Part shown: positions 861 through 59,060 of the stretch, piece by piece | Layout: every line of letters begins with the position of its first letter | Position numbering within the stretch: the first letter of the stretch is position 1 | Origin: a virus | Lineage: Duplodnaviria > Caudoviricetes | DNA length: 64,000 bases | IMG/VR virus record: IMGVR_UViG_3300001765_000034 | Span: 1 to 64,000 of that record | Strand: one strand, 5' to 3' | The notes under the pieces: generated by a model | Told to the model about the DNA's origin: nothing | The model's input: the letters and a program-made list of their open reading frames with translations, nothing else | Databases searched by the model: none | Translations under genes and position numbers: made by a program

Positions 861-3800
861 TTAAGTTATTCTCATTACTTCAATGTATGCATCCGATATA
901 GTGGTTGAACTTCCAACATTCCAATATTCTAAAACTATTGTATTTACCCCAGATAACGTGGTAATTTCAATAATACTATTTGTTTCCACATTAGTGATGT
1001 CTTGTGGCTCAATTGATAATTGTGTTTGTGTTCCAATAGGTGACCCGTTTAATGTTATTCTAAACAATGCCGCGTTAGCAATACTTGAATGAGACCATTT
1101 CCATGTTGCAATAATTTTATATGTTCCCGAAGGTAGATTACTTGTAGTTAACGTCGCTTTTGTTTGTGGAGTTGTTGCTGTTGACGTTGAGTTTCCTACG
1201 GATGAAGTGTATTCATAAACTGATCCAAAGATACCCGAAGTTCCACTTGTACCTGAAGAACCAGATGACCCACTTGATCCAGATGACCCACTTGTACCAT
1301 TAATACCCGATGTACCAGAAGACCCAGAACTACCGCTCGAACCTGATGTTCCACTTGTTCCTGAACTACCTGATGTACCTGAAGTTCCACTTGAACCGGA
1401 TGATCCAGAAGAACCAGATGAACCACTGGTGCCAGATGTTCCATTTATTCCACTAGTACCGCTAGAACCAGAACTACCTGATGTGCCCGCAGTACCACTA
1501 CTTCCGCTTGTGCCAGATGTACCTGAAGAACCACTAGTGCCTGATGTTCCATCAATACCGCTAGAACCCGATGAACCACTTGAACCAGAACTTCCTGATG
1601 TTCCCGATGTTCCGCTACTTCCACTAGTTCCTGATGTCCCACTAGAACCCGATGAACCGGATGTTCCATCAATTCCGCTAGTTCCTGAACTACCAGAAGA
1701 CCCACTAGATCCTGAACTACCACTACTTCCGGACGATCCTGACGAACCCGAACTTCCAGATGTACCACTAGTTCCTGATGTCCCGGAAGAACCAGATGAC
1801 CCTGAGCTTCCAGATGTTCCTGATGTACCTGAACTGCCAGAAGACCCACTCGATCCCGATGTACCACTTGTACCTGATGAACCACTAGTTCCATTCAAAC
1901 CATTTATACCTGATGTTCCAGAAGAACCTGAACTACCAGATGTTCCTGATGTTCCATTTATACCTGAAGTACCGCTAGAACCACTTGTTCCAGATGTACC
2001 ATTAATACCGCTTGTACCCGAGCTTCCACTGGTTCCCGATGACCCAGAACTTCCGCTTGAACCTGAACTACCTGAAGTTCCATCAATACCACTTGTTCCT
2101 GAGCTTCCTGAAGAACCCGATGTTCCCGAAGAGCCAGAGCTTCCACTTGAACCAGATGTTCCTGAAGAACCGCTTGAGCCGGATGTTCCGCTACTTCCAG
2201 AAGATCCTGAACTTCCGCTTGAACCTGAAGAACCAGAACTTCCCGATGACCCAGAACTGCCGCTTGAGCCTGAGCTTCCTGAAGTTCCAGATGAACCAGA
2301 TGTTCCTGAAGAACCGGATGTTCCTGAACTACCAGATGTACCCGAACTTCCGCTTGACCCACTAGTTCCTGATGTACCGCTAGAACCCGATGTTCCATCC
2401 AAACCATTTATACCTGATGTTCCGCTTGTGCCAGAACTACCGGATGTACCCGATGATCCACTTGAACCAGATGTTCCCGAACTACCGCTTGAGCCAGAAG
2501 AACCTGATGTCCCTGAAGATCCCGATGTTCCAGTACTTCCAGAGCTTCCACTTGACCCAGAAGAACCAGATGTGCCCGATGATCCACTTGAACCAGATGT
2601 TCCATCTAAACCGTTTATTCCACTCGTACCTGACGAACCACTAGTTCCATCAATTCCTGATGTTCCACTTGTGCCAGAACTACCTGATGTTCCGTCTAAT
2701 CCATTTATTCCCGATGTTCCTGAACTACCTGATGTTCCTGATGAACCACTTGACCCGGATGTACCACTACTTCCCGAACTTCCACTTGAACCAGAGCTTC
2801 CGGAAGTTCCACTAGAACCAGATGACCCTGAAGTGCCAGAAGTACCGTCTAATCCATTTATACCTGATGTACCACTTGAGCCTGATGTACCTGAAGTTCC
2901 ATCCAATCCGTTTATTCCCGATGTGCCTGAGCTACCAGAAGAACCTGAAGTCCCGGAAGTTCCAGATGAACCACTTGTACCGGAGGTTCCATCCAAACCA
3001 TTTATGCCTGATGTACCAGAAGTTCCTGACGAACCCGAAGTTCCAGATGAACCGCTTGTACCATTTATTCCACTTGTTCCTGAACTACCGCTACTTCCAG
3101 ATGTTCCTGAGCTACCTGAAGTCCCGTTAATACCACTAGTTCCCGAAGAACCTGACGTTCCACTAGAACCGCTAGTTCCAGATGTGCCGGATGTTCCTGA
3201 AGAACCTGATGAGCCACTTGAGCCGGAAGTTCCACTACTTCCACTTGTTCCCGAACTTCCAGAAGACCCACTTGAACCACTTGAACCACTACTACCAGAA
3301 GTACCTGACGTACCGTCCAATCCATTTATTCCCGATGTTCCTGAACTTCCTGATGTACCACTAGAACCTGAAGTTCCATCAACACCGCTTGTTCCCGATG
3401 AACCAGAACTACCAGAAGTACCTGAAGAACCCGAACTTCCACTGGTTCCTGATGAACCACTAGAACCTGAGCTACCGCTCGTTCCCGAACTACCTGAAGT
3501 TCCATCAATACCACTCGTTCCACTCGAACCAGATGTTCCGCTAGAACCAGACGATCCTGAACTTCCACTTGACCCGGATGTACCTGAAGAGCCACTTGAG
3601 CCAGAAGTTCCATCTAAACCATTTATACCTGAAGTACCACTAGAACCCGATGTTCCAGAACTACCTGACGAACCACTCGTTCCGTTAATACCTGAGCTTC
3701 CTGATGTTCCAGAACTTCCTGAAGTTCCACTGGTTCCATCCAAACCGTTTATTCCGGATGTACCGCTACTTCCACTTGAACCAGATGTACCTGAACTACC

Positions 3801-6790: not shown

Positions 6791-9700
6791 TTAAGTATTT
6801 CTATATTCAAATGTTGATTTAGTTGTGCCGTATACGCTCCAATGCATTTTATATGTTATTCCTGACCAATAACCATCTGGGCTATTAACATTTCCCGTTG
6901 CTACCGAGGTAATAAAAGTTCCGTCATTAGTTCCATTATCAAATGCGTCTACATACCATTTTGTTTTTGTTGTATAACTATTTTGATATGCAACCCAAAT
7001 ATATTCACTTGACGAATTATATGTTATTGTTAATGTTCCAGATGCTGCAGTTAAAACTTTATTTGCAGTTCCTCCTGAAATTGCAGATGCTATTGACTCA
7101 ACAGTTGGCAACGAACTCATTTTTCCCCAGAAATATGGATAAATTCCTGTTATTGTATATGTTGTAGTTCCAAATGTATTACCTGATAATTGAGGTCCTG
7201 TTGTTGTTCTAAGAGCATAAGCACTAGAATCTGTGTTCCCTTTATTATCTAATTTTTGTAATCCTGAGTCATAATTACCATCTCCTTGATATGTTGTAGA
7301 TCCTCCAGGTATAATGTATGATTCATTATATGGTGTTGGACTAATTGAATATGTATGATTAGGATTATTTGGGTCAGTATACCCGAATTGTGCAGCAATG
7401 TCTGTCGCAGATGATTCGGTTAATGTAGTGTCGGTAAATATTGGTGAACTATTTCGTAAAATTCTTAATTGGGTATATAATCCCGCATCATTTTTAACAC
7501 CTGATAATGTAATATTTGGTGAATATGTTCTACCAATTTCATATGTTTGGTTTGAAACTCCACCTAATGTTATTGTTGGGATAGTATATGTAGGTTCTAC
7601 TGTTGGAAATAATAAATCATTCCAAAGTTGAACATTTGTTTTTCCTGTTAATTGAGAAACCGTTGTTCCTGCTGGTATTCCACCAATAGTTGTCGGGGTC
7701 GCTAATGACGGATCTAATGTTGTATTAAATACGGTATATAATGTATCACCAGTAACACCTGAAATTAACCCTAAACCTGTATTATCACTAACACTAAGGT
7801 TAGTTCCAGTTCCAGATGTTCCCGAACTTCCACTAGTTCCGTCAATTCCTGAAGTGCCTGATGTTCCGTTTATACCTGAAGTACCTGACGAACCATTTAT
7901 TCCAGAAGTACCAGATGATCCACTTGTTCCAGAACTTCCTGAAATCCCGCTAGTTCCAGACGAACCACTGGTTCCATCTAAACCATTTATTCCAGACGTT
8001 CCTGAACTTCCACTTGAGCCAGAAGTTCCATCAATACCACTTGTTCCTGATGAACCAGAACTGCCGGATGTTCCAGAAATACCAGATGAACCACTTGAAC
8101 CTGAAGTTCCAGAAGTACCTGAACTACCTGACGTTCCACTAATACCAGAAGATCCTGATGTTCCATCAATACCAGAAGTACCTGAAGATCCACTTGTTCC
8201 AGAACTACCTGATATACCACTAGTTCCTGATGAACCGTTAGTTCCATCAATTCCTGATGTACCACTAGAACCCGAACTTCCCGATGTACCATTTATTCCC
8301 GAAGTTCCACTTGATCCAGATGTACCCGAAGAACCACTAGCCCCTGATGACCCACTCGTTCCAGAACTTCCAGATAAACCTGAAGTTCCCGATGACCCAC
8401 TAGTGCCGTCTAATCCATTTATACCTGATGTTCCTGATGAGCCAGAACTTCCACTAATTCCAGATGTTCCTGAACTTCCTGATGTTCCATCAATACCGCT
8501 AGTACCACTAGTACCACTTAATCCTGATGACCCACTAGTTCCAGATGTTCCGTCCTGACCGCTTGTCCCTGAAGTTCCGTCCTGACCATCAATTCCTGAT
8601 GTACCACTAGATCCTGAACTACCCGATGTACCATTTATTCCTGATGTACCACTAGATCCGGATGTTCCAGAAGTACCGCTTAACCCAGAGGTTCCTGATG
8701 AACCACTTGACCCTGATGTACCGTCCTGTCCATCTATACCCGATGTTCCACTTGAACCAGATGTTCCGTCAACCCCTGATGTACCACTTGAACCAGAACT
8801 TCCAGACGTTCCATTTATTCCACTTGTACCAGATGACCCTGAAGTTCCTGAAGAACCACTAGTTCCATCTAATCCATCAATTCCTGATGTACCAGAACTT
8901 CCACTGCTTCCGCTTGAGCCAGAAGTTCCTGACGATCCACTAGTTCCGTCAATTCCTGATGTTCCAGAAGTTCCATTTATTCCCGATGTTCCGGAAGTTC
9001 CATCAATCCCTGATGTACCTGATGATCCACTACTTCCAGATGATCCACTAGAACCAGAACTACCTGAGCTTCCGCTTGAGCCCGATGTCCCATCTTGACC
9101 ATCAATACCACTTGTTCCAGAAGTTCCGTTAATACCAGAAGTTCCACTCGAACCTGATGTCCCGTCAATTCCAGATGTTCCACTCGAGCCAGAAGTCCCA
9201 TCTAACCCATTTATTCCTGAAGTCCCTGAACTTCCGCTTGAACCTGATGATCCACTCGATCCGCTTGAACCTGATGAACCACTCGATCCGCTTGACCCCG
9301 ATGAACCACTCGAGCCAGAAGTTCCATCTTGCCCACTTGTTCCCGATGTCCCATTTATTCCAGATGTTCCACTTGAACCAGAGCTCCCAGATGTTCCACT
9401 TGAACCAGAGCTCCCAGATGTTCCACTTGAACCAGAACTTCCAGATGTTCCACTTGAACCAGAACTTCCAGATGTTCCACTTGAGCCAGAAGTACCGTTA
9501 ATTCCTGATGTTCCTGATGTTCCACTAGACCCATCTAACCCTTGAGCCCCACCTATGTTAACATCCCAATTAGAATATGTTCCAGAACCGTAAACTGTAT
9601 CAATATTTCCAACCATATCACCCGTTGATGGGTTATATGAATTAACAGTTCCGGTCATATAATTTGAGCCGTCGTATGCAATAATAAAAGTTTGTCCGGG

Positions 9701-10585
9701 TGTATAATTAAGTCCCGTTTCAACAGTAAAATTTTGTGTTCCTCCACTTATCGTTAAAGAATCAGTTGAGGTAGCTTGATATATATCACCTGAAAGTCCT
9801 GATGTTCCAGAACTTCCGCTAGTTCCGTCAATTCCTGATGTGCCAGATGTGCCTGAGCTTCCAGATGAACCTGAAGTTCCGCTTGTGCCAGATGAACCTG
9901 AAGTTCCGCTTGTGCCAGAACTTCCAGATGTGCCGTTGATACCAGATGTCCCTGATGTTCCATCAATACCAGATGTCCCCGATGTTCCTGAAGACCCGCT
10001 TGTTCCAGAACTTCCTGATGTTCCTGAAGATCCACTTGAACCAGAACTTCCTGATGTTCCTGAAGATCCACTTGAACCAGAACTTCCCGATGTACCGTTA
10101 ATTCCAGAAGTTCCCGATGTACCGTCAATTCCAGAAGTTCCCGATGAACCACTGGTACCAGATGACCCTGATGAACCAGATGACCCTGATGAACCAGATG
10201 ACCCAGATGATCCACTGGTTCCCGATGTTCCTGATGTTCCTGATGATCCACTACTTCCAGAAGTTCCCGATGTCCCATTTATTCCAGATGTACCTGAACT
10301 TCCAGACGTACCAGAAGTACCGCTTGATCCTGAACTTCCGCTAGTACCTGAACTTCCGCTAGTACCCGAACTTCCAGATGTACCTGAACTTCCAGATGTA
10401 CCTGAACTTCCAGATGTACCTGAAGTTGCTGTAACTACGAAATCTTTAAAAGCCCCTAATGTAATAGAATACGTTGTAACACCATCGTCATAAACCGTCC
10501 ATCCAGTTAAAGATAAATCTTGACCCGGAACTAAAGGTAATTCTGGTATGTGTTTTCCGTTACATTTATTTTCTCCTATTGCCAT
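6791..10585 (-). CDS. Second Gly-X-X repeat fibre protein, 1264 aa
   Basis: G-X-X tracts interrupted by an ~80 aa beta module (ATSTDSLTISGGTQNFTVETGLNYTPGQ...GSGTYSNWDVNIG) of a type I recall from phage fibre proteins; C-terminal domain with YPYFWG and YIWVAY motifs. Confidence 0.85.
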   Translation of the reverse strand: MAIGENKCNGKHIPELPLVPGQDLSLTGWTVYDDGVTTYSITLGAFKDFVVTATSGTSGSSGTSGSSGTSGSSGTSGSSGTSGSSGSSGTSGTSGSSGTSGINGTSGTSGSSGSSGTSGTSGTSGSSGSSGSSGSSGSSGSSGTSGSSGTSGIDGTSGTSGINGTSGSSGSSGSSGTSGSSGSSGSSGTSGSSGTSGSSGTSGTSGIDGTSGTSGINGTSGSSGTSGTSGSSGTSGTSGSSGSSGTSGTSGIDGTSGSSGTSGLSGDIYQATSTDSLTISGGTQNFTVETGLNYTPGQTFIIAYDGSNYMTGTVNSYNPSTGDMVGNIDTVYGSGTYSNWDVNIGGAQGLDGSSGTSGTSGINGTSGSSGTSGSSGSSGTSGSSGSSGTSGSSGSSGTSGSSGSSGTSGINGTSGTSGQDGTSGSSGSSGSSGSSGSSGSSGSSGSSGSSGSSGTSGINGLDGTSGSSGTSGIDGTSGSSGTSGINGTSGTSGIDGQDGTSGSSGSSGSSGSSGSSGSSGSSGTSGIDGTSGTSGINGTSGTSGIDGTSGSSGTSGSSGSSGSSGTSGIDGLDGTSGSSGTSGSSGTSGINGTSGSSGSSGTSGVDGTSGSSGTSGIDGQDGTSGSSGSSGTSGLSGTSGTSGSSGTSGINGTSGSSGSSGTSGIDGQDGTSGTSGQDGTSGTSGSSGLSGTSGTSGIDGTSGSSGTSGISGSSGSSGTSGINGLDGTSGSSGTSGLSGSSGTSGSSGASGSSGTSGSSGTSGINGTSGSSGSSGTSGIDGTNGSSGTSGISGSSGTSGSSGTSGIDGTSGSSGISGTSGSSGTSGTSGSSGSSGISGTSGSSGSSGTSGIDGTSGSSGSSGTSGINGLDGTSGSSGTSGISGSSGTSGSSGTSGINGSSGTSGINGTSGTSGIDGTSGSSGTSGTGTNLSVSDNTGLGLISGVTGDTLYTVFNTTLDPSLATPTTIGGIPAGTTVSQLTGKTNVQLWNDLLFPTVEPTYTIPTITLGGVSNQTYEIGRTYSPNITLSGVKNDAGLYTQLRILRNSSPIFTDTTLTESSATDIAAQFGYTDPNNPNHTYSISPTPYNESYIIPGGSTTYQGDGNYDSGLQKLDNKGNTDSSAYALRTTTGPQLSGNTFGTTTYTITGIYPYFWGKMSSLPTVESIASAISGGTANKVLTAASGTLTITYNSSSEYIWVAYQNSYTTKTKWYVDAFDNGTNDGTFITSVATGNVNSPDGYWSGITYKMHWSVYGTTKSTFEYRNT

Positions 10586-49944: not shown

Positions 49945-50044
49945 ATTGGAAACTTTTGTTTTTATTATTCGTACATTATACTATTATCGTGCCAAAGTTG
50001 TCTTATTTTAAACAAGTAAATATTTATTTAAAAATATTGATACT

Positions 50045-50551
50045 TTGAGAACACTACGAGAAGAAAGAATTAGGATTATTCAAATTATGGGTCATAACAA
50101 TCGTGCCTTTGAACCAATTCTAACGGAAGCCGAAATTTCCGCCAAGAAATTCCAAAACACCAGAAGTTTTGTTATCAATAATAATATTATGATATTCGGG
50201 ACGCCAAATTCAAATGCTTGGGATGAACAAATTTATGCAATTGCATCAACAGCAGGTAACAGTATTGAAACATTAAACGATTTTTTTGAAAAATTTGATT
50301 ATAACCTTCTTATTAGTCAAAAAATTCTCCCAGTGTTTTATGAGGAGGATGATAGATGTAATTTAGAATATTTTATGTCTTTTGATGAAACAACGATAAA
50401 TGGTGAAAAAATAGTTACATGGCAAAATAATAGATATGAGATGACATTTGAAAAAGATAACGTTTCAAGATCGTCTCGCAAAGATAATCTGACAATTCGT
50501 GATAAGGCTGACCAAATATTGGATAGGCTTGAATACAGTACAGATTTTTAA
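50045..50551 (+). CDS. Hypothetical protein with N-terminal LREERIRIIQIM motif
   Basis: 168 aa (TTG start); ATATTTAT at 50020-50027. Confidence 0.6.
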   Translation: MRTLREERIRIIQIMGHNNRAFEPILTEAEISAKKFQNTRSFVINNNIMIFGTPNSNAWDEQIYAIASTAGNSIETLNDFFEKFDYNLLISQKILPVFYEEDDRCNLEYFMSFDETTINGEKIVTWQNNRYEMTFEKDNVSRSSRKDNLTIRDKADQILDRLEYSTDF

Positions 50552-50564
50552 AAACACAAACTTT

Positions 50565-51290
50565 ATGAAAAAATCGTTAACGGAAGAAGCCCAAAGGATT
50601 ATGGAGATAATGGGAAAAATGAATTTAACTGAATTAAATGTACGATATATGGACCAGTTACTCGATAAAATTAGTAAATCTGGTATGGAATCATTAAGTG
50701 ATTACGAAAAAGAATCGTTACAAAAACTTTCAAGAGGTGAAGATACAAAAGAACCGGAAATCCATTCTCTCGGTAAATCTGAAAACACATTGAGGTTTAC
50801 CACCACCGACCAAAATAATGGCCAACCACTTGCTAGACCAAAAGACGCTGGACAGACATTCGGTAAAGCCGCTCTTAAAAACGCTTATATACATGGTGAA
50901 GCAGCAGAACTTGCTGGATATGATTTACCTGTTTTTATCGATGGTGATTTATCACAATTAGATAAACCCGTAGAAGAACAAGAAATTAGGATGTTAACCA
51001 ATAAAGGTGAATATGAGTGCGTTTCTGAGGTAGGCGAAGATGATGGTCGTCAGGTATATTATCTTGTATTAAAAAAACCAGAAGGTGACGAATCCGATTT
51101 TGATGATGAAGTGATGGGACTTAACGAAAATATGTCACAATATAATGTCTTCAACGATACTGAAATGAGTATTAATGAGGGAAACGCGTTTGTTGGAGCA
51201 GCCAAGAAAGCGAAAGAAGATGGAAAAGATAGTTTTGAATTAAATGGAAAAAAATATAAAGTAACGGTTAAGAAAACCGAACAATATTAA
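50565..51290 (+). CDS. Hypothetical protein (probable start MKKSLTEEAQRIMEIM at 50565)
   Basis: ORF track 50499-51290; the internal ATG avoids overlap and places the shared motif at the N-terminus. Confidence 0.65.
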   Translation: MKKSLTEEAQRIMEIMGKMNLTELNVRYMDQLLDKISKSGMESLSDYEKESLQKLSRGEDTKEPEIHSLGKSENTLRFTTTDQNNGQPLARPKDAGQTFGKAALKNAYIHGEAAELAGYDLPVFIDGDLSQLDKPVEEQEIRMLTNKGEYECVSEVGEDDGRQVYYLVLKKPEGDESDFDDEVMGLNENMSQYNVFNDTEMSINEGNAFVGAAKKAKEDGKDSFELNGKKYKVTVKKTEQY

Positions 51291-51324
51291 AATAACATAT
51301 ATTTATTATATAAAAACCGATAAA

Positions 51325-51681
51325 ATGAAAAAAACGTTAGAAGAACAAAAAAAGAGAATAACTCAACTTATGAGACCTATTAACGAATTAATTCATGTTA
51401 ACGATATGGATTTAGACGGTGAAAATACAAATTTTGATTCGTCTCAAGAATTAAAACCCATTATGGATCAATTAAAAGATGCAATGAGGAAATATCAAGA
51501 ACTATCAAAAAGAACACCTGTTCCAGGAACTGGAAGTCCTTATCCGACTGAAAACCTAAAGGAGTCTTTTTTGAAGTGGATGTCATTTATGTGGGAAAGA
51601 GTTAAAGAAGGTAACGATTCCGTTGAAGGACAGCTCAAGAATTACCCTATTAAACCTAATGATCCAACAGAAATGAATTAA
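51325..51681 (+). CDS. Hypothetical protein with N-terminal LEEQKKRITQLM motif
   Basis: 118 aa; ATATTTAT at 51299-51306. Confidence 0.65.
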   Translation: MKKTLEEQKKRITQLMRPINELIHVNDMDLDGENTNFDSSQELKPIMDQLKDAMRKYQELSKRTPVPGTGSPYPTENLKESFLKWMSFMWERVKEGNDSVEGQLKNYPIKPNDPTEMN

Positions 51682-51728
51682 TTTAGTTCTCAATAAAATA
51701 AAAATAATTAAACATTTTTTAAAAAACA

Positions 51729-51760
51729 TTTGGCAAATCCAAAAAAATGATTTACATTTG
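51729..51760 (+). promoter_or_regulatory. Bacteroidota sigma70-type promoter of tRNA array 1
   Basis: TTTG (51729-32), 20 nt spacer, TACATTTG (51753-60). Confidence 0.75.
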
Positions 51761-51811
51761 TACCATAATTGAGAAAAAACAAAATTTGAACATATTTAAT
51801 ATAAAGAAACA

Positions 51812-51910
51812 ATGAGAAATTTACTCGACATATTATTGGTGGCTGCAGCGGTTGAAGTCCTATTATGGGCTGATGAGGATGCACGAAAAAATGTCGGGTG
51901 TAAAATATAA
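51812..51910 (+). CDS. Leader peptide 1, MRNLLDILLVAAAVEVLLWADEDARKNVGCKI (putative attenuator peptide)
   Basis: Hand-translated 32-codon ORF between promoter and terminator; codons 4-24 are almost all L/D/V/A/E/W. Confidence 0.8.
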   Translation: MRNLLDILLVAAAVEVLLWADEDARKNVGCKI

Positions 51911-51968
51911 CTATTTACATACATGTTCTACTTAAAGAACCCGACATCTACCAAGAGTCGGGTTTTTT
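51891..51968 (+). promoter_or_regulatory. Attenuator 1: antiterminator/terminator pair
   Basis: ATGTCGGGT (51891-99) is complementary to ACCCGACAT (51939-47), the 5' arm of terminator AACCCGAC...GTCGGGTT-TTTT. Confidence 0.8.
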
Positions 51969-51984
51969 GTTTTTAGGTATGTAT

Positions 51985-51996
51985 TGTTCTTTGACA
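51985..51996 (+). promoter_or_regulatory. boxA-like antitermination element
   Basis: TGTTCTTTGACA, similar to rrn boxA TGCTCTTTAACA; recurs at 54737 and 62181. Confidence 0.6.
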
Positions 51997-52008
51997 TGAT
52001 GGAAATTT

Positions 52009-52082
52009 AGTGCGTTAGTTCAGTTGGCTAGAATGCCGCCCTGTCACGGCGGAGGTCACGGGTTCGAGCCCCGTACGCACTG
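52009..52082 (+). tRNA. trnD: tRNA-Asp(GTC)
   Basis: Canonical cloverleaf, CCGCC-CTGTCAC-GGCGG, G73, no encoded CCA. Confidence 0.92.
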
Positions 52083-52193
52083 CAATCTCAACCGAAAGTA
52101 AGTAGGTTACTGGTGAAGCGGGGGTGAGGACCCTAAGCTGATGGGTTCGAAGCCCACCAGCGCATGAAAAGCAAAAAACAGTTTGGGGATTAT

Positions 52194-52266
52194 CGAGGCC
52201 GTCGTATAATGGCTAGTAGTACCGCCCTGTCACGGCGGAGGAGGGGTTCGAATCCCACGGTCTCGG
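52194..52266 (+). tRNA. trnD: tRNA-Asp(GTC), imperfect T-stem
   Basis: Acceptor CGAGGCC/GGTCTCG, same anticodon arm as the first copy, GGTTCGAATCCC. Confidence 0.7.
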
Positions 52267-52603
52267 CTATTCTTTAGTGTAATTGAGTTAGGATTGAAAG
52301 GAGTCATGACCTGGAGATTACTATACGAAGAAACATCAATCCTGTAATCACGGCCGGGGTTATTAGGGGAGATGATTTTTAGTGAGAGCATACCGGGCAT
52401 GCGGCTCGGAGGTGAGGTTAGAGACCTTAAAGAATAAAAAATACTGTGTTAGGTAAATGGTAATAAATGTTAAAACAATGAAGAAGAAAGAAACGTCTGG
52501 AAATTCTAGACAAAAAGTAGATTTCAAAGTAATTCCAAAAGAAGAACTTGAAAAAAATCGAAGTAAGGCATATGATTACTTGATTTAAGTATGGTATTTA
52601 AAC

Positions 52604-52677
52604 GCTGCGTTAGGCAAATTGGTTAAGCCGTCAGACCTTCAATCTGAAGATTAGGGGTTCGACCCCCCTACGCAGTA
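52604..52677 (+). tRNA. trnE: tRNA-Glu(TTC)-like with C at position 33
   Basis: GCTGCGT/ACGCAGT acceptor; TCAGA-CCTTCAA-TCTGA anticodon arm. Confidence 0.65.
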
Positions 52678-52769
52678 CGAGGTTCAGTGTGAAATAGAAA
52701 GGTTTCTGAGGTTTGTTCATACTGAGGTTCAGTATAACCTTGATTATAGGTCAAAAAAAATCTCGCCAC

Positions 52770-52841
52770 GCTCGGTTCGTCTAACGGTCAGGACAAATGG
52801 TTTTCATCCATTAAATAGGAGTTCGATTCTCCTACCGAGTA
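52770..52841 (+). tRNA. trnE: tRNA-Glu(TTC)
   Basis: GTCTAACGGTCAGGAC D-arm; AATGG-TTTTCAT-CCATT. Confidence 0.9.
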
Positions 52842-52884
52842 CTTTAATTTTTTGTATTCTCTTAGTATTTATTTTAAACATTAT

Positions 52885-52969
52885 GCTCCTTTAGCTCAGC
52901 GGTCAAGAGCACCTGTTTTACAAGCAGGAGGCGAATAGTATCACGGTGGTTCGAATCCATCAAGGAGTA
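52885..52969 (+). tRNA. trnV: tRNA-Val(TAC) with 16-nt variable region
   Basis: CCTGT-TTTACAA-GCAGG; acceptor GCTCCTT/AAGGAGT. Confidence 0.82.
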
Positions 52970-53088
52970 CATACGGTTAGGACCGTTATAGCTACGGCTA
53001 TTAGGGGTGGGATGTTCGCTGCTGACCACCCCTTTATTTTAATTATCCCACAAATTTTATAGATAGATGAACAAAGAGATTAAATAAT

Positions 53089-53172
53089 CTCGAAGTGGCG
53101 GAATTGGTAGACGCGCTAGCCTAAGGAGCTAGTTCCCGAAAGGGAGTGTGGGTTCGAGTCCCACCTTCGAGA
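53089..53172 (+). tRNA. trnL: tRNA-Leu(AAG)
   Basis: Leu-type D-loop and variable arm; CTAGC-CTAAGGA-GCTAG gives anticodon AAG. Confidence 0.88.
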
Positions 53173-53313
53173 CAAAAGGTTCATGACGGAACTAAGCAGA
53201 TGTTGACCGCGTAACCTGTGCCGAGTGTTCTTGGATGTGAAGGAGTAATACCTTCAGACTCATTATGTGGATCTGCAAAAGCGTAATGGTTGAACTACTA
53301 AAAAGGCACAAAT

Positions 53314-53397
53314 GCAGACGTGGCGGAATTGGTAGACGCGCCAGACTTAGGATCTGGTGCCCGGAAGGGCGTGTGGGTTCGAGTCCCACCTTCTGTA
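53314..53397 (+). tRNA. trnL: tRNA-Leu(TAG)
   Basis: CCAGA-CTTAGGA-TCTGG; class II variable arm. Confidence 0.92.
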
Positions 53398-53452
53398 CGT
53401 TTAGACCGTTTAGAATTTTTATTAGTACTGAAGTAGCGTAGAAAATTCACTT

Positions 53453-53524
53453 GGGGAATTCGTATAGTGGCTATTATAATTGCCTTGCACGCAATGGACG
53501 GGGTTTCGATTACCCCATTCTCCA
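53453..53524 (+). tRNA. trnA: tRNA-Ala(TGC)
   Basis: ATTGC-CTTGCAC-GCAAT; G3:U70 pair. Confidence 0.88.
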
Positions 53525-53552
53525 CTTTGACGGTTCGGAAAGACGAACAAAC

Positions 53553-53627
53553 GCGGGTGTAGCTCAGCTGGCTAGAGCGTCTGATTTGCAATCAGAAGGT
53601 CGTGGGTTCGAAGCCCACTACTCTGCA
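53553..53627 (+). tRNA. trnA: tRNA-Ala(TGC), bulged acceptor stem
   Basis: TCTGA-TTTGCAA-TCAGA; G3:U70; 3' acceptor strand has one extra nt. Confidence 0.78.
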
Positions 53628-53743
53628 CAGGAGGGGTAGATTTATCAGGAGTCCTATTGATACGGATGAATACCCAGCATGGTGTGGTTACTATTTAAAA
53701 TGAAACCGTCAGCAAAACTACATACGATGAAAAAGTAACAAAT

Positions 53744-53823
53744 GGCTCTGTGGATTATGTAAACTGGCACAGCTAACGGGCTTAAACCCCGATCTTTTGT
53801 GGGTTCGAGTCCCACCAGGGCTA
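53744..53823 (+). tRNA. trnL: Atypical tRNA-Leu(TAA): enlarged D region, no variable arm
   Basis: GGCTCTG/CAGGGCT acceptor, CGGG-CTTAAAC-CCCG, canonical T-arm. Confidence 0.65.
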
Positions 53824-53829
53824 CAATTA

Positions 53830-53963
53830 TATTTCGTGGTGGAATTGGTATACACACCTGACTGAATCCCAAAAATGGATTACCTATATGCGGGCTGGAT
53901 CGGGCGTTTAAGTAGTAAGGTATTCTACGAAAGAAATTGCGGGTTCGAGTCCCGTCGAAATGT
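53830..53963 (+). tRNA. Class II (Leu/Ser-type) tRNA body interrupted by ~47 extra nt in the anticodon loop; anticodon undetermined
   Basis: TATTTCG/CGAAATG acceptor, GTGGAATTGGTATACAC D-arm, variable arm and GCGGG-TTCGAGT-CCCGT T-arm. Confidence 0.55.
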
Positions 53964-53971
53964 AATTATTC

Positions 53972-54051
53972 GGCTCTGTGGATTATGTAAACTGGCACAG
54001 CTAACCGGCTCAAACCCGGATCTTTTGTGGGTTCGATTCCCACCAGGGCTA
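53972..54051 (+). tRNA. trnL: Atypical tRNA-Leu(CAA), paralog of 53744-53823
   Basis: Near-identical body; CCGG-CTCAAAC-CCGG with compensatory stem change. Confidence 0.65.
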
Positions 54052-54093
54052 CTATATTTTTGATTTTTTCCATATTTATAATAAACTGAAAGT

Positions 54094-54270
54094 ATGTGGC
54101 AATATAAACGTATTGGATATCAATTTCATTTATTAAGAGACATGGAAGCTCAACTAAATAAAGATGGTGAGGATGGTTGGGAAATCATCTATTATACCGA
54201 AACAAAACCTGTAAAATTATCTGATTATTATGTCTCAGATATACTTTACAAAAAATACGTCAATTGCTGA
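54094..54270 (+). CDS. Small DUF4177-like protein (58 aa)
   Basis: Hand translation MWQYKRIG...LNKDGEDGWEII; stop overlaps the 5' end of tRNA-Trp. Confidence 0.5.
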   Translation: MWQYKRIGYQFHLLRDMEAQLNKDGEDGWEIIYYTETKPVKLSDYYVSDILYKKYVNC

Positions 54271-54339
54271 GTGGTTAAAAGCGTTGGTCTCCAAAACCAA
54301 TCTCGAAAGAGTTCGTGGGTTCGAATCCTACTTGGCGTG
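54257..54339 (+). tRNA. trnW: tRNA-Trp(CCA) with a variable arm
   Basis: TTGGT-CTCCAAA-ACCAA; variable hairpin CTC-GAAA-GAG; G73. Confidence 0.82.
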
Positions 54340-54455
54340 CAAAAATTTCCATCTAGTCTGTATTAACATTAACTATTAGAAATGAGGAGATTACATTAAG
54401 TTAATAATTAACTTAAATAAAAAATCTTTAATTTAATAAGAAAGTTTAACTTTTA

Positions 54456-54487
54456 CTTGGTATTTATAATTTTATTACATATATTTG
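54456..54487 (+). promoter_or_regulatory. Bacteroidota sigma70-type promoter of tRNA array 2
   Basis: CTTG, 20 nt spacer, TATATTTG (54480-87). Confidence 0.7.
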
Positions 54488-54509
54488 TACAGAATTAATA
54501 TTTGAAACA

Positions 54510-54590
54510 ATGAGAACTTTATTACATCAGCGCCCCCAAGGACAACCACCAGTGGTTGAACGGGAGACTTGTGTTCTAAATTTTTCGTAA
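54510..54590 (+). CDS. Leader peptide 2, MRTLLHQRPQGQPPVVERETCVLNFS (putative attenuator peptide)
   Basis: Hand-translated 26-codon ORF between promoter and terminator; codons 4-14 are L/H/Q/R/P except one Gly. Confidence 0.8.
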   Translation: MRTLLHQRPQGQPPVVERETCVLNFS

Positions 54591-54649
54591 TTCGAGAGTT
54601 TTTAGATTAGACAAAAGAAACCCCGTTCAGTAATGAATGGGGTTTTTTT
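54557..54649 (+). promoter_or_regulatory. Attenuator 2: antiterminator/terminator pair
   Basis: TGAACGGG (54557-64) is complementary to CCCGTTCA in the 5' arm of terminator AAACCCCGTTCA-GTAA-TGAATGGGGTTT-TTTT. Confidence 0.8.
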
Positions 54650-54657
54650 ATTTAAAA

Positions 54658-54732
54658 CTGGGTGTATTGCAGATGGTTATACTACCGTGCCCTGGAAGCA
54701 CGGGTCCGCAGGTTCGAATCCTGCCACCCAGA
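54658..54732 (+). tRNA. trnP: tRNA-Pro(TGG)-like with C33 and weak D-stem
   Basis: CTGGGTG/CACCCAG acceptor; CGTGC-CCTGGAA-GCACG. Confidence 0.65.
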
Positions 54733-54736
54733 CGAT

Positions 54737-54748
54737 TGTTCTTTGACA
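54737..54748 (+). promoter_or_regulatory. boxA-like element
   Basis: TGTTCTTTGACA, identical to 51985-51996. Confidence 0.6.
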
Positions 54749-54754
54749 TTTAAT

Positions 54755-54841
54755 GCACCTGTATCCCCCTAGTCTTCGAAACTTTCGAAACTAGAGAGCG
54801 GTAATTGGATGAGAATATGGGTTCGAATCCCTTCAGGTGTA
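54755..54841 (+). tRNA. Rearranged tRNA-Arg(TCG)-like RNA
   Basis: GCACCTG/CAGGTGT acceptor and T-arm present; no D-arm before the anticodon arm; 9-nt duplication TTCGAAACT. Confidence 0.5.
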
Positions 54842-54847
54842 CAATTC

Positions 54848-54919
54848 GCACCCGTAGTTCAATGGATAGAACACTAGACTACGGATCTTGAGATTGAGGT
54901 TCGAGTCCTCCCGGGTGTA
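54848..54919 (+). tRNA. trnR: tRNA-Arg(ACG)
   Basis: Canonical Arg D-loop AATGGATA; loop CTACGGA. Confidence 0.88.
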
Positions 54920-54977
54920 CAATTATCGGTTAAATAACCTATAAATATAATTTATCGGTTGTGGAGACGATAAATTT

Positions 54978-55062
54978 CGGGATGTGGTGTAGTTGGTAGC
55001 ATACGTGTTTTGGGAACATGGGGGAACGCAAGTCATCGCAGGTTCGAGTCCTGCCATCCCGA
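54978..55062 (+). tRNA. trnP: tRNA-Pro(TGG) with 17-nt variable region
   Basis: CGGGATG/CATCCCG acceptor, A73; CGTGT-TTTGGGA-ACATG. Confidence 0.85.
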
Positions 55063-55220
55063 CTAAAGTTAATCGTCCGTCATATGAAGATTTAATAACA
55101 GAAATAAATATTTTTGGATACTCAGCAACTGGCAGAAAATATGGAGTAAGTGACGTGTCAATAAAAAAATGGAAAGAAAAATATGAAAAAGATTTAATAA
55201 ATGGTGTATGTAGCCGGTAA
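55063..55220 (+). pseudogene. Orphan C-terminal HTH fragment resembling that of phage HNH homing endonucleases
   Basis: RPSYEDL...GYSATGRKYGVSDVSIKKWKEKY with no start codon of its own and no nuclease domain. Confidence 0.5.
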
Positions 55221-55289
55221 TTGGTGTCCGACCAGCCTGTGAAGCTGGAATCTGAAAAGACCATGTGGGTTCAAGTCCCATCATTCACC
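55203..55289 (+). tRNA. trnH: tRNA-His(GTG) with a variable arm
   Basis: G-1:C73 pair; CCAGC-CTGTGAA-GCTGG; variable hairpin TCT-GAAA-AGA. Confidence 0.85.
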
Positions 55290-55331
55290 CAAAAGCGTGA
55301 TATTTTGATTTATCACTTTATTACGCGATAT

Positions 55332-55404
55332 TGTCTCGTAGTGTAATTGGTAACATGTCTGGCTCTGGACCAGAAGACTGGGGAATCGTACTCCTCCGAG
55401 ACAA
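55332..55404 (+). tRNA. trnQ: tRNA-Gln(CTG), non-canonical T-loop
   Basis: TGTCTCG/CGAGACA; TCTGG-CTCTGGA-CCAGA; T-loop AATCGTA. Confidence 0.75.
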
Positions 55405-55413
55405 CAACTATAT

Positions 55414-55487
55414 TGCCCTGTGGTGTAATTGGTTAACATACGGCACTTTGGATGCTGTGACTCAAGGTTCGAACCCTTGCGGGGCAA
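55414..55487 (+). tRNA. trnQ: tRNA-Gln(TTG)
   Basis: Canonical cloverleaf; CGGCA-CTTTGGA-TGCTG. Confidence 0.9.
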
Positions 55488-55493
55488 CAATAT

Positions 55494-55579
55494 TCTCCTC
55501 TGGCAGAATGGACAAATGCGCCAGACTTTGACTCTGGTACCCATATTCGGGTTTGTAGGTTCGAGTCCTACGGGGAGGA
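55494..55579 (+). tRNA. trnQ: tRNA-Gln(TTG) with class II body
   Basis: CCAGA-CTTTGAC-TCTGG; variable arm ACCC-ATATTC-GGGT; Ser/Tyr-like D-loop. Confidence 0.78.
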
Positions 55580-55583
55580 CAAA

Positions 55584-55615
55584 TTTGGAAATGTCAAATA
55601 TTATACTTATCTTTG
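55584..55615 (+). promoter_or_regulatory. Bacteroidota sigma70-type promoter before tRNA-Leu(TAA)
   Basis: TTTG, 20 nt spacer, TATCTTTG (55608-15). Confidence 0.65.
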
Positions 55616-55621
55616 TCAAAT

Positions 55622-55705
55622 GCCGAGATGATGGAATTGGCAGACATGCAGCACTTAAAATGCTGTGGGCATTTGCTCGTGTGGGTTCGAGTCCCATTCT
55701 CGGTA
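55622..55705 (+). tRNA. trnL: tRNA-Leu(TAA), canonical
   Basis: CAGCA-CTTAAAA-TGCTG; class II variable arm. Confidence 0.92.
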
Positions 55706-55724
55706 CAATAATAAATGATTAGAT

Positions 55725-56462
55725 ATGTACATCATTTCAAAAACGAAAGATTATTACGATGGGGTTGTCGGTACAGTGGGTATCGATAAGTCAATTGTAT
55801 ATGATCGCAACACCGTAATTAACGAAAATAGGGAGACATTTATAGATCCATTTTCGGCGAGAAAGGGTTGGCATAAAAGGAATATTACTCCATTTCATAA
55901 CATATGTTCTCACTCAATTAAAAAGGGGTCGAGATATGAAGATGGCTCGCCATTCATTGTTGGGTTTTGTGGAAAATTATACATAGGGTGGAAATTTTAT
56001 AAAGAGGATTTTGATAGTTTTTATGGCACGAAATTCGAAACTTTCATCACTTATGATTTAGAATTCATCAAAAATGAGATAACACATAAGAGTTGGTATG
56101 GTAATTTAATTGATGACATCAATTACATTTTAACATATAATCCATTGGAAATCTTTAGAAAACTAAAAACCCCGATATTTATATACGATAGTGATTATGA
56201 CAGAAAGTTCATTAAAAGATACCACCGTAATGATGTTCTCATTACAAACCCCATACTAAAAGATTATGAGTTTTATAAAGTAATGGATAGCTTTACTGCT
56301 TTCCAAGAAATTCAAATGTTTATGGGTGGAGTATTAGGTATCGGAGAAAAAGAAATCGTTGAAGTTGAGGACAAATATAAAATCTCCCAACATGGATTCA
56401 ACGAATTTAGTTTTCGTAGAGACAAAGCAAATGGAAAAAAAAGACCACAATCCCAAAGATAA
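55725..56462 (+). CDS. Hypothetical protein
   Basis: 245 aa ORF. Confidence 0.7.
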   Translation: MYIISKTKDYYDGVVGTVGIDKSIVYDRNTVINENRETFIDPFSARKGWHKRNITPFHNICSHSIKKGSRYEDGSPFIVGFCGKLYIGWKFYKEDFDSFYGTKFETFITYDLEFIKNEITHKSWYGNLIDDINYILTYNPLEIFRKLKTPIFIYDSDYDRKFIKRYHRNDVLITNPILKDYEFYKVMDSFTAFQEIQMFMGGVLGIGEKEIVEVEDKYKISQHGFNEFSFRRDKANGKKRPQSQR

Positions 56463-56631
56463 TAAACCCCAAATAGGTTTAATGGAGTATGTTCGATTGC
56501 AACAAAATGTGACCGAAGATATTGATATGCTTAAGGCATTATCGCGACCATGGATACCACCCAACACAGATAAAATTTACTGTGGATCAGACCTTGCAGA
56601 CCAACTACAAGGTCTTTTGAATTTAAAATAA
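56431..56631 (+). CDS. Small hypothetical protein (probable start MEKKDH at 56431)
   Basis: 3' part of ORF-track 56359-56631. Confidence 0.45.
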   Translation: MEKKDHNPKDNKPQIGLMEYVRLQQNVTEDIDMLKALSRPWIPPNTDKIYCGSDLADQLQGLLNLK

Positions 56632-56693
56632 TAGGTGATTTTCTTGGAAAATAAGAAAATATTGTTACCTTTGCATTTAATAAATTTTAAACC

Positions 56694-57479
56694 ATGAAAC
56701 AATTATCAAAAAATCAAATTAAAATGAGCGTTGAAGTAATAAAAATTCTTGATAAAATGTGGTCATCGATTCACATGAAGAGGGTTACTTTAATTTCCTT
56801 TTTATTTTTATTTAATATAAGTGTAATTACCCCCGGATCTGTAAGTATTAGTGATTCTCCTATAATTCAAGATAGGACAGAGTCAAAAGAAAAATTGTAT
56901 ATTGAGGCCGTTAAATTAAAAATGGAAAATAGCTTAATATTGGAAGTTGAACGTTATTTTAACGAAGTTGCTCCTGAAACAAAATTATCCGCAAATTGTA
57001 TTGTTGAAAAATGTTTGGAATACAATACTGATATTATTTTTGTACTAGCTCAAGGGTTACTTGAATCTCATTTTGGAACAAAAGGTAAGGCTGTAAACAG
57101 TAATTCGGTTTGGAATGTAGGGACATATGATAATGGACAAGTTCTATATACATATAAAACTCCGAATGAGTCGATAGAACCCTATCTTAAATTAATAAAT
57201 GAGAGATATCTAATAAACATAACATCTAAGGGTGACACCATTTACAAAGATGTATCCCATTTGACATCTGATAAAGGATATGTTAACGATAGTGGAGATA
57301 GATTTGCTTCCGCACGGGGATATGAAAATGCTATGAGAAAGCTTATGATATCTATTGATGCAAAAACATCAATTAAGTTATATCAGGGAATTTTAATGCT
57401 ACCCGACGAAACATTCTTATCTTATTTTAATCCCAACCAAATAGAACCGAATTCAGAAAACTATTTAGCGTATAGATAA
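56694..57479 (+). CDS. Membrane-anchored glucosaminidase-like (GH73/lysozyme-like) protein
   Basis: TM segment, then FVLAQGLLESHFGT...NSVWNVG...Y...ESIEPY; promoter TACCTTTG at 56666-73. Confidence 0.65.
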   Translation: MKQLSKNQIKMSVEVIKILDKMWSSIHMKRVTLISFLFLFNISVITPGSVSISDSPIIQDRTESKEKLYIEAVKLKMENSLILEVERYFNEVAPETKLSANCIVEKCLEYNTDIIFVLAQGLLESHFGTKGKAVNSNSVWNVGTYDNGQVLYTYKTPNESIEPYLKLINERYLINITSKGDTIYKDVSHLTSDKGYVNDSGDRFASARGYENAMRKLMISIDAKTSIKLYQGILMLPDETFLSYFNPNQIEPNSENYLAYR

Positions 57480-57551
57480 AACTCGTTTTTCATACTATTT
57501 ATATGTATCCCTTTCGTAAATAGAAAGGATAAAATATCATATTTATAAGTT

Positions 57552-59060
57552 ATGACATATAGTACTCATATCAACGTTACCGAAGAGGAAAGAAAAAAAA
57601 TACTTAACGAACATAGTTTGACGTTAAATCCTCAAATTATTAGAGAAAATATCCAATCTTTCAGGTTCACCAGTGATATGAAGTATGTTGTTTTTGAAAA
57701 CAATTTTTATTCATGTGAAACTGGTGAGTTAATGCCTTTGACCGAAAAATGGTCAGTAAGTGACATTTTACATACAGTTGGAGATGTGGCATCTTTGGGG
57801 ATGGACTTTATCGTTCCCGGGTCTGGAGCTATTGTTGATGCAGTTAATGGTACAAGTTATTTTATAGAAGCTATTTTTACTAAAGACGCAACCACAAGGA
57901 AAAAATTATTTATTATGGGGGCTATTACTTTGGCTTTTGTAATAATTCCTGGTCCGTTACAAGCGGTAGCAATACCAATGAAACGTTTCGTGAAATATGG
58001 AGCGAAAAAAGCGATGAATAAAACAGTACTTGCTGGTCTTGAAATAATTTACAAAAATTTAAGTAAAATATTATCGTCTATTCCAAGAATGATTCAGAGG
58101 GCAGTTGCCACACCTTTAGGTAAAAAAGTCCTTGGTAAATATAGTAAGACAATAACGACTCAAATGGATACCATTATAACTGGGATCAAATCTTCGTTTG
58201 ATGATTTAATTACTAACGCAAGGAAAGCAGTTCCTGAAGGCCCACAATCAGCAGCATTTAGGAAAAAAGAAGCCGATAAAATCTATAACAAAAAAGTAGT
58301 TAGTAAAACTGGTGGAATTGTAGGAAAAACAGCTCGTAGAGGTGGTAGAATATTACGTTTATTTGGTATCAAAAAATTAGATAACATTCTAAGAGCTGGC
58401 GTACCAGAAGGTCGTTTAACCGGAAAGGCGTTGAGAAATTTAGGAATGGGTGTTGGAGGAAAATATAAGTACGTTGTACCAAAAAGTAATAGGGTTATTA
58501 ATATACAAATTCTTAAAACTACTCCTGATGGGGTAATTTGTAGAAATCTTACCGATGGATCACAATTTTCGGCAACTAACGGTAATTTTATTTTTAACGC
58601 AGTTGCCGCACCGTGGGTAAGAAGAGGTAAGGGTAAATTTGTTCCATTCTTTATAAAAAGATTAACAGATGTAATAACACCTGAAGGTCAATTTGACGAA
58701 CAAGCACTCGCTGAATTACCAGATCTTGATCCGTCCGAAACATCATTAGAATCATTAAACTATATAAGAAGTGATGTTGGAGCAGAATATCAAGGACATA
58801 TTGGTAAATACACAGTAAACCCCGTTGTTCAGGCAGTTCAAAAAGGATTAGTATTATTAGGATATAGTTTACCATCCGGGGAGGACGGAAAATTTGGACC
58901 TGAAACTAAAAAGGCGGTCGAACAATTTCAAACAGATGCAAGTCTTGAATCTTTTGATGGGGCAATTGATAGGTTAACGGCTCGTAAATTAGCTCTTGAA
59001 TTAAGAGCAAGGGGAATCCCAAATTCGGAAGATCTACAAAATGAACTTAATAACATATAA
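57552..59060 (+). CDS. Large protein with pre-toxin-TG-like motif and C-terminal peptidoglycan-binding domain
   Basis: LHTVGDVASLGMDFIVPGSGAIVDAVNGTSYFIE; VQKGLVLLGY...DGKFGPETKKAVEQFQ...DGAIDRLT (PG_binding_1). Confidence 0.7.
   Translation: MTYSTHINVTEEERKKILNEHSLTLNPQIIRENIQSFRFTSDMKYVVFENNFYSCETGELMPLTEKWSVSDILHTVGDVASLGMDFIVPGSGAIVDAVNGTSYFIEAIFTKDATTRKKLFIMGAITLAFVIIPGPLQAVAIPMKRFVKYGAKKAMNKTVLAGLEIIYKNLSKILSSIPRMIQRAVATPLGKKVLGKYSKTITTQMDTIITGIKSSFDDLITNARKAVPEGPQSAAFRKKEADKIYNKKVVSKTGGIVGKTARRGGRILRLFGIKKLDNILRAGVPEGRLTGKALRNLGMGVGGKYKYVVPKSNRVINIQILKTTPDGVICRNLTDGSQFSATNGNFIFNAVAAPWVRRGKGKFVPFFIKRLTDVITPEGQFDEQALAELPDLDPSETSLESLNYIRSDVGAEYQGHIGKYTVNPVVQAVQKGLVLLGYSLPSGEDGKFGPETKKAVEQFQTDASLESFDGAIDRLTARKLALELRARGIPNSEDLQNELNNI

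Follow-up and report, generated by a model that had tools for sequence, protein, structure and literature searches.

A predicted leader-peptide attenuator, written in the codons of the tRNAs behind it, in front of a phage tRNA array

The question raised by the locus

What decides when a large phage transcribes its own tRNA genes? Leader-peptide attenuation is textbook knowledge for amino-acid operons, but the control of tRNA genes is generally ascribed to their promoters. The question is raised here by a locus in the IMG/VR virus record IMGVR_UViG_3300001765_000034, whose first 64 kb constitute the stretch of DNA that was analysed (hereafter the window). Between positions 54,456 and 55,705 a short open reading frame (ORF), leader 2, and an intrinsic terminator stand before a group of tRNA genes, array 2; a sister unit with its own leader 1 stands before array 1, some 3 kb upstream. 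The original prediction, made from the letters of the DNA, took leader 2 and its terminator for a codon-matched, ribosome-mediated attenuator. The computational tests that were run largely favour this reading. The unit is probably, at a probability of about 0.82, a ribosome-mediated (leader-peptide) transcription attenuator that would raise the transcription of tRNAs for Pro, Arg, His and Gln when these very isotypes are short.

Anatomy of the unit

The unit opens with a promoter-like site of the Bacteroidota type (Table 1), which a sigma-70 scan lists as well (54457-54485). Its TAnnTTTG element also precedes leader 1 and the leaders of relatives. The leader ORF starts 23 nt past the promoter-like -7 element; its limits, its peptide and its codons 4 to 14 are exactly those that had been predicted. 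Ranked against all ATGs, its start context scores at the 97th percentile, which is about the median for real gene starts. Codons 6 to 14 (54525-54551) form a putative regulatory run of His, Gln, Arg, Pro, Gln, Gly, Gln, Pro and Pro, and 8 of the 9 match isotypes of the downstream array. From its start codon to the terminator, the leader measures only about 110 nt.

Two competing RNA structures can be drawn. The segment termed 2, which carries TGAACGGG and lies within the ORF, can form 9 bp with the 5' arm of the terminator (54622-54630), a duplex of -14.7 kcal/mol; the antiterminator pairing of the original prediction is thus present as an 8-9-nt complement inside the coding sequence. The resulting 2:3 antiterminator has an energy of -10.4 kcal/mol alone and of -23.2 kcal/mol with the inner stem-loops that it encloses. 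The terminator itself reaches -17.9 kcal/mol, or -21.6 kcal/mol if an A/U extension of the stem is counted. Upstream, a small 1:2 hairpin may act as a protector of segment 2; closure by a CCC:GGG pairing brings this structure to -10.9 kcal/mol, with part of segment 2 sequestered in it. The first tRNA gene, for Pro, begins 8 nt past the T-run of the terminator, too close for it to have its own promoter. The array therefore needs read-through of the terminator if it is to be transcribed from this side.

The sister unit in front of array 1 displays clear alternatives, with 1:2, 2:3 and 3:4 pairings (-13.5 and -15.7 kcal/mol for the 1:2 and 2:3 duplexes, -19.2 kcal/mol for the terminator). Leaders 1 and 2 have 13 nt of start context in common, as had been noticed. 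Measured by one uniform definition, the distance from stop codon to terminator arm, said to be 27 nt in both, comes to 26 nt for leader 1 and 27 nt for leader 2; this near-equality is no design rule, since relatives range from 26 to 49 nt. It had also been proposed that the two leaders are reciprocal in their codons. This is correct for Asp, Ala and Trp, but the second half of leader 2 contains Val, Glu, Cys and Leu(CTA) codons, all of them for isotypes of array 1.

Codon match against chance

The codons read by the array-2 tRNAs make up 14% of the codons in the long ORFs of the phage, and a run of 11 codons with 10 matches has a probability of about 4e-7. An empirical null set was provided by all 591 ATG-initiated ORFs of 15-45 codons in the six frames of the 84-kb contig. 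Leader 2 ranks alone at the top for array-2 codons, with a score of 10 against 8 for the runner-up, and so does leader 1 for array-1 codons, with 14 of 15. A chance ORF was rejected on the basis of this null set and of conservation, in line with the original estimate that chance is unlikely.

The 10 of 11 matching codons first reported (codons 4-14) are correctly listed, yet the count includes a pair of TTA codons whose role is no family trait. TTA at codon 4 is frequent in those leaders of relatives whose Pro-type arrays have no tRNA-Leu(TAA), so that the specific core is better given as 8 of 9 codons.

Relatives and classes of leaders

Relatives recruited through the proteins that flank the arrays comprise seven IMG/VR loci, on contigs that range in size from about 10 to 365 kb. 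A like sorting of tRNAs is seen there, into a set of Pro, His and Gln with or without Arg, a set of Asp, Glu, Val, Leu, Ala and Trp, and a set of Lys and Tyr. At 6 of 6 loci with examinable array heads, a conserved terminator precedes the isotype set, together with a short ORF in matching codons. Three leader classes are found in all, two of them in this contig. Within loci, leaders match their own array with a mean of 0.49 and other arrays with a mean of 0.07. The real assignment of leaders to arrays is the unique best among 1728 possible ones.

The search for further leader and terminator units called for by the original prediction had a mixed outcome. There are none elsewhere in the contig, where every tRNA gene lies within 52009-55706 and no other terminator has tRNAs after it; intrinsic terminators of the same build close ordinary genes there. 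An additional class was encountered in relatives, in the form of Lys/Tyr-type leaders in front of matching arrays. Leader gating is not universal within one phage, since the Leu(TAA), Leu(CAA) and Met tRNAs of relatives occur singly among protein genes with neither leader ORF nor terminator before them (L001 13460-14704, L004 12680-13897 and equivalents). Three relatives also carry a full tmRNA gene beside their tRNA arrays (L002 11032-11400, L003 4031-4390 and L004 11033-11392; called by ARAGORN, 119 bits in Rfam).

Scanning viral contigs with a terminator pattern, and metagenome contigs with a stricter three-part pattern, brought together 40 Pro-type cassettes that are distinct at the DNA level. 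This family is widespread in environmental viral contigs. Its leaders follow a common plan, with a Met-Lys start, an alternating Gln/Pro run that includes one His, and then the codons that spell segment 2. Among 15 gap-free homologues the amino acids of the regulatory run are preserved in spite of changes at third codon positions, the entropies being 0.15, 0.17 and 0.77 at codon positions 1, 2 and 3. Such third-position drift is a hallmark of translated sequence.

The RNA helices are conserved as well. In an alignment of 21 cassettes (A1), 99% of the cells of the terminator helix are paired, with three compensatory pairs. The antiterminator helix is paired in 93% of cells over the 21 homologues, and segment 2 was absent from the search pattern by which these sequences had been recruited. 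The helix includes one compensatory pair, U-A in 17 sequences and C-G in the remaining 4, to which the window belongs. A conserved block past the stop codon is also seen in A1. For the 1:2 hairpin the alignment is less uniform: one relative (L117) retains it through a two-sided change, and the register differs in others. A protector function of this hairpin is therefore only partly supported.

Arg codons and tRNA-Arg

The Pro-type arrays occur with or without Arg, and Arg codons in the leader co-occur with this isotype. A tRNA-Arg(ACG) is present in the array behind 7 of 9 leaders that have an Arg codon in their run, and behind 0 of 24 leaders that have none (Fisher P = 8e-6, uncorrected for shared descent). 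The anticodon ACG, as ICG, reads CGC and CGA. Each of the 14 Arg codons in the regulatory runs is one of these two, although together they account for only 16% of the Arg codons in the phage genes, where AGA dominates. The leader of the window belongs to the Arg-bearing group.

His was considered as a second co-varying isotype and proved uninformative, because three arrays that seemed to lack it hold an atypical tRNA-His(GTG). These genes (L002 2699-2769, L097 12549-12619 and L125 10305-10375) score 36-42 bits in Rfam and were missed by ARAGORN, which means that tRNA counts based on ARAGORN alone underestimate the arrays.

Proposed mode of action

What we infer as to translation of the ORF, ribosome stalling and conditional read-through is the following. 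Transcription from the host-type promoter at about 54456-54487 would at once yield a short mRNA whose 26-codon ORF is translated. If charged tRNA for His, Gln, Arg or Pro is scarce, the ribosome would linger on codons 6-13 and melt the small 1:2 hairpin, leaving segment 2 (54556-54564) free. As soon as the 5' arm of the terminator has been made, segment 2 would pair with it and, together with the inner stem-loops, constitute the antiterminator, allowing the polymerase to continue into the tRNA-Pro gene. With fast decoding, the ribosome would instead have moved over segment 2 and onto the inner stem-loops by the time segments 3 and 4 are made; the 12-bp terminator would then form and the transcript would stop in the T-run. 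The tRNAs of the array would speed the decoding of the leader, which amounts to negative feedback on the supply of these same isotypes.

Folding in the presence of a ribosome was modelled by masking a footprint of 28 nt on transcripts that end before segment 4. The predicted 2:3 pairing has a probability of about 1 with the A site on codons 6-12, of 0.43 on codon 14 and of 0 on codons 15-23. This outcome of the model fits the classical logic, in which slow decoding of His, Gln, Arg or Pro codons means read-through and fast decoding means termination.

Several points weigh against the proposal. The stop codon of the window leader lies four codons farther downstream than in most relatives. In the model a ribosome at the stop codon leaves segment 2 of the window free, with a 2:3 probability of 0.97, as compared with 0-0.03 in five relatives. 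The truncated window transcript also favours the antiterminator when no ribosome is present (P = 0.97), and the 1:2 protector, as modelled, is weak there. Since the ribosome-free leader prefers the antiterminator and a ribosome at the stop codon leaves segment 2 free, termination in the window would hinge on a ribosome in motion, on its timing and on whether it melts the inner stem-loops. Part of the conservation of the C-rich codons could be due to their second role, in RNA pairing. Homologous cassettes share descent, so that the counts for pairing, leader-array match and Arg co-occurrence are not independent observations. Two leaders (L136 and L153) have an Arg codon with no detectable tRNA-Arg in the array. 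Lastly, coupling of transcription and translation in the host of the phage is an assumption of the proposed mechanism.

A bolder proposal concerns the sorting of the units by isotype. They could form a counter-defence circuit that senses isotype-specific loss of host tRNA during infection and replaces only those tRNAs that are hit, as distinct from a housekeeping control of codon supply. Such loss could stem from host anticodon nucleases, from other defences that target tRNA, or from the shut-off of the host by the phage. We put this forward tentatively and consider it rather doubtful.

Alternative explanations

A first, improbable alternative is that the terminator acts constitutively and partially, setting a fixed low level of tRNA or insulating the array from upstream transcription, and that the ORF senses nothing, being a conserved micropeptide gene or a by-product of RNA structure. 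The terminator is indeed strong and is placed where transcripts of array 1 would arrive, there being no terminator between tRNA-Trp and leader 2. Moreover, the switch logic is not clean, as the window leader folds into the antiterminator in the absence of a ribosome, and RNA pairing dictates part of the peptide through the location of segment 2 in codons 16-19. A terminator that senses nothing would leave unexplained why the codons of each of the three leader classes correspond to the isotypes of its own array, why Arg codons of the right family occur where tRNA-Arg(ACG) is present, and why amino acids are kept while third positions drift, in codons most of which lie outside the helices.

Two further schemes retain regulation but relocate the sensor. 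According to one, which we regard as very unlikely, the Pro/Gln-rich nascent peptide stalls the ribosome intrinsically and reports on the activity of elongation factor P (EF-P) or on general translation stress. A Pro-Pro pair does occupy codons 13-14 of the window leader, and Pro is frequent in all Pro-type leaders; EF-P is reported to affect transcription-translation coupling in E. coli (PMC5021804), which counts in favour of such an arrest peptide. However, Pro-Pro is seen in only 3 of the first 21 homologues, an alternating Gln/Pro order being usual, and the other two leader classes have the same architecture without Pro. A ribosome halted at codon 14 would partly cover segment 2, as the modelled 2:3 probability at this codon indicates, and the stall would favour termination. 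The suggestion in the original prediction that the pair reports on EF-P is, on these grounds, not supported as a family trait. According to the other scheme, the leader RNA senses uncharged tRNA directly, in the fashion of a T-box, and the ORF is irrelevant. It would suit a unit that precedes translation-related genes and closes with a choice between terminator and antiterminator. Nevertheless, neither a T-box nor any other cis-regulatory Rfam family was found in 50000-58000 at E values up to 1, the short leader between start codon and terminator lacks specifier-loop architecture, several isotypes are represented in one leader, and the codon-position entropy indicates translation; we find this scheme scarcely credible. 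A coupling of the pyrBI type, with the ribosome melting the terminator directly, was rejected because 27 nt separate the end of the ORF from the terminator arm. Leader-peptide attenuation in response to the isotypes of the array is the reading retained here.

The putatively controlled array and other tRNA-like elements

Table 1. Coordinates of the two leader units, array 2 and unusually long tRNA genes in the window
Feature	Position	Strand	Remarks
Sister unit before array 1	51729-51965	+	promoter-like site 51729-51760; leader ORF 51812-51910; terminator 51937-51965
Promoter-like site, Bacteroidota type	54456-54487	+	CTTG element, 20-nt spacer, TAnnTTTG element; read from sequence, putative function
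Leader ORF (leader 2), 26 codons	54510-54590	+	homologous ORFs in 40 cassettes
Segment 1:2 hairpin	54543-54558	+	6 bp, -6.2 kcal/mol; 5' arm inside Gln-Pro codons
Segment 2, antiterminator 5' strand	54556-54564	+	within codons 16-19
Inner stem-loops within 2:3 helix	54568-54617	+	constrained fold; leader stop codon on their 5' side
Intrinsic terminator (segments 3 and 4)	54618-54649	+	12-bp stem 54618-54645, 4-nt loop, 7 T
tRNA array under putative control	54658-55580	+	Pro, degenerate UCG-like, Arg(ACG), Pro, His, Gln(CTG), two Gln(TTG)
tRNA starts (ARAGORN): Pro(TGG), Arg(ACG), Pro(TGG), His(GTG)	54658, 54848, 54978, 55204
tRNA starts (ARAGORN): Gln(CTG), Gln(TTG), Gln(TTG), Leu(TAA)	55332, 55414, 55494, 55622
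Promoter-like motif, Bacteroidota type, then tRNA-Leu(TAA)	55584-55615, 55622-55706	+
tRNAs of 84-87 nt: Val, Trp, Pro, His, Gln	52885-52970, 54257-54340, 54978-55063, 55204-55290, 55494-55580

The Pro, Arg, His, Gln and Leu tRNAs predicted downstream of leader 2 are all called by ARAGORN. The element described as TCG-like corresponds to a stretch between tRNA-Pro and tRNA-Arg (54755-54841) that has a UCG loop and a sub-threshold Rfam score of 25.5 bits, with no ARAGORN call. Its acceptor stem is intact and its anticodon-loop region contains a tandem duplication of about 9 nt around the UCG anticodon. This degenerate tRNA-like gene could be a tRNA-Arg(UCG) that has been disrupted, or else a tRNA carrying a small insertion. 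The separate promoter proposed for Leu(TAA) is present as a promoter-like motif, and this tRNA is probably the last member of the array, started separately; relatives have Leu(TAA) within the Asp-type array.

Other observations concern the spacers and the neighbouring array 1. Five tRNAs of isotypes that normally have a short arm, namely Val, Trp, Pro, His and Gln, are 84-87 nt long and apparently have long variable regions. The spacer between tRNA-Pro and tRNA-His (55069-55200) contains a short open stretch that resembles the tail of a protein gene and may be the remnant of a mobile endonuclease gene. A tRNA with the Cys anticodon GCA lies at 53553-53627 (55.8 bits in Rfam, missed by ARAGORN), and leader 1 has one Cys codon. 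Near-identical copies of a tRNA-like element of about 80 nt, with T-arm and acceptor end, are found at 53745-53825 and 53972-54052; they match the 3' end of tmRNA weakly in Rfam and are not called by ARAGORN. Between them (53830-53963) lies a tRNA-like stretch of 134 nt with 29.5 bits, which the intron mode of ARAGORN presents as a tRNA with an insertion.

The phage and its host

The window is the beginning of a virus record of 84,149 bp (34.7% G+C) that has no terminal repeat and is probably, for that reason, a partial genome. The phage is uncultured and T4-like; the contig encodes a major capsid protein, a portal protein and a large terminase of the T4 type. Shine-Dalgarno sites precede only 6 of its 75 genes, the start regions being A-rich instead, and TAnnTTTG-type promoter motifs precede several units of the contig; the count of these motifs in the window, 6 as against 3.0 expected from shuffles, is a marginal excess. 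The closest cultured relative by capsid is Flavobacterium phage immuto (40% identity), which infects Flavobacterium. A Bacteroidota host appears likely from the combination of A-rich starts without Shine-Dalgarno sites, the promoter motifs and the host of this relative.

Phage immuto has three tRNAs, without such a leader or terminator, and a consensus-like cassette compared by blastn with GenBank phage records gave no match. A Pro-type cassette does occur in L131 (JBAZIW010000001.1, 362,763 bp), deposited as a metagenome-assembled genome of Candidatus Paceibacterota. This scaffold is probably the genome of a huge phage binned as a bacterium, and the single match in genome contigs was discarded as a clue to the host, being uninformative in that case. 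The minus strand of the window also encodes two giant proteins (861-6785 and 6791-10585; 1974 and 1264 amino acids) with collagen triple-helix repeats, which may be fibre proteins. They consist of about 26% Gly, 29-34% Ser, 14-15% Thr and about 1% Pro, and the idea that they create the demand for Pro was rejected on account of this Gly/Ser/Thr-rich composition.

Comparison with known systems

Leader-peptide attenuators that respond to more than one amino acid are known from enterobacteria, as in ilvGMEDA and ilvBN (Ile/Leu/Val) and thr (Thr/Ile), next to those of trpL, hisL, leuL and pheL. The phage units resemble these in having near the promoter a short ORF rich in the codons whose decoding would be monitored, in representing several amino acids per leader with the position of the ribosome as the presumed read-out, and in their antiterminator and terminator helices, which both use the 5' arm of the terminator and so exclude each other. 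Unlike them, the phage unit would control tRNA genes and not biosynthetic enzymes, so that its output feeds back on the quantity that is sensed. It is also viral, has no Shine-Dalgarno site, holds segment 2 inside the ORF, and has a 1:2 protector that is weak or variable in register. A cmscan of 50000-58000 with E values up to 1 gave no match to the Rfam families of amino-acid operon leaders (His, Leu, Thr, Trp); tRNA and weak unrelated hits were all it returned.

Nearest in logic is the pheST attenuator of E. coli with its pheM leader, which controls a synthetase in response to charged tRNA-Phe. There, as is proposed here, a gene of the translation apparatus is under leader-peptide attenuation and decoding speed sets the supply of a component of decoding. 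However, pheST is cellular, is concerned with one amino acid and encodes a synthetase, whereas the phage units would gate arrays of 4-6 isotypes, with parallel units for different isotype sets. With the T-box riboswitches (RF00230) the phage element would share a response to tRNA status and a choice of terminator or antiterminator before translation-related genes. It differs in that a T-box binds uncharged tRNA directly and needs no translation, while the phage element is, by its substitution pattern, a translated ORF.

The known tRNA clusters of phages have been described, to our knowledge, as promoter-driven arrays without a sensing leader. As tRNA gene arrays of a large myovirus, those of the window are comparable to the clusters of T4-like and jumbo phages, for which a survey exists (PMC6409571). 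Full-text searches of the literature, the older subscription literature aside, brought up no account of tRNA genes under leader-peptide attenuation. The phage units differ from the known attenuators in that their putative targets are tRNA genes, in a virus, and in parallel units that are specific for sets of isotypes.

Biological meaning

The virus appears to monitor the decoding speed of particular codons and to produce the tRNAs that match them as they are needed, with a separate sensor for each set of isotypes. If this is true, it would directly answer why and when large phages express tRNAs, and would offer a natural repertoire of compact sensors that respond to the decoding speed of specific codons and need no Shine-Dalgarno sites. 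It would also provide a testable link between the tRNA arrays of phages and the depletion of tRNA in their hosts.

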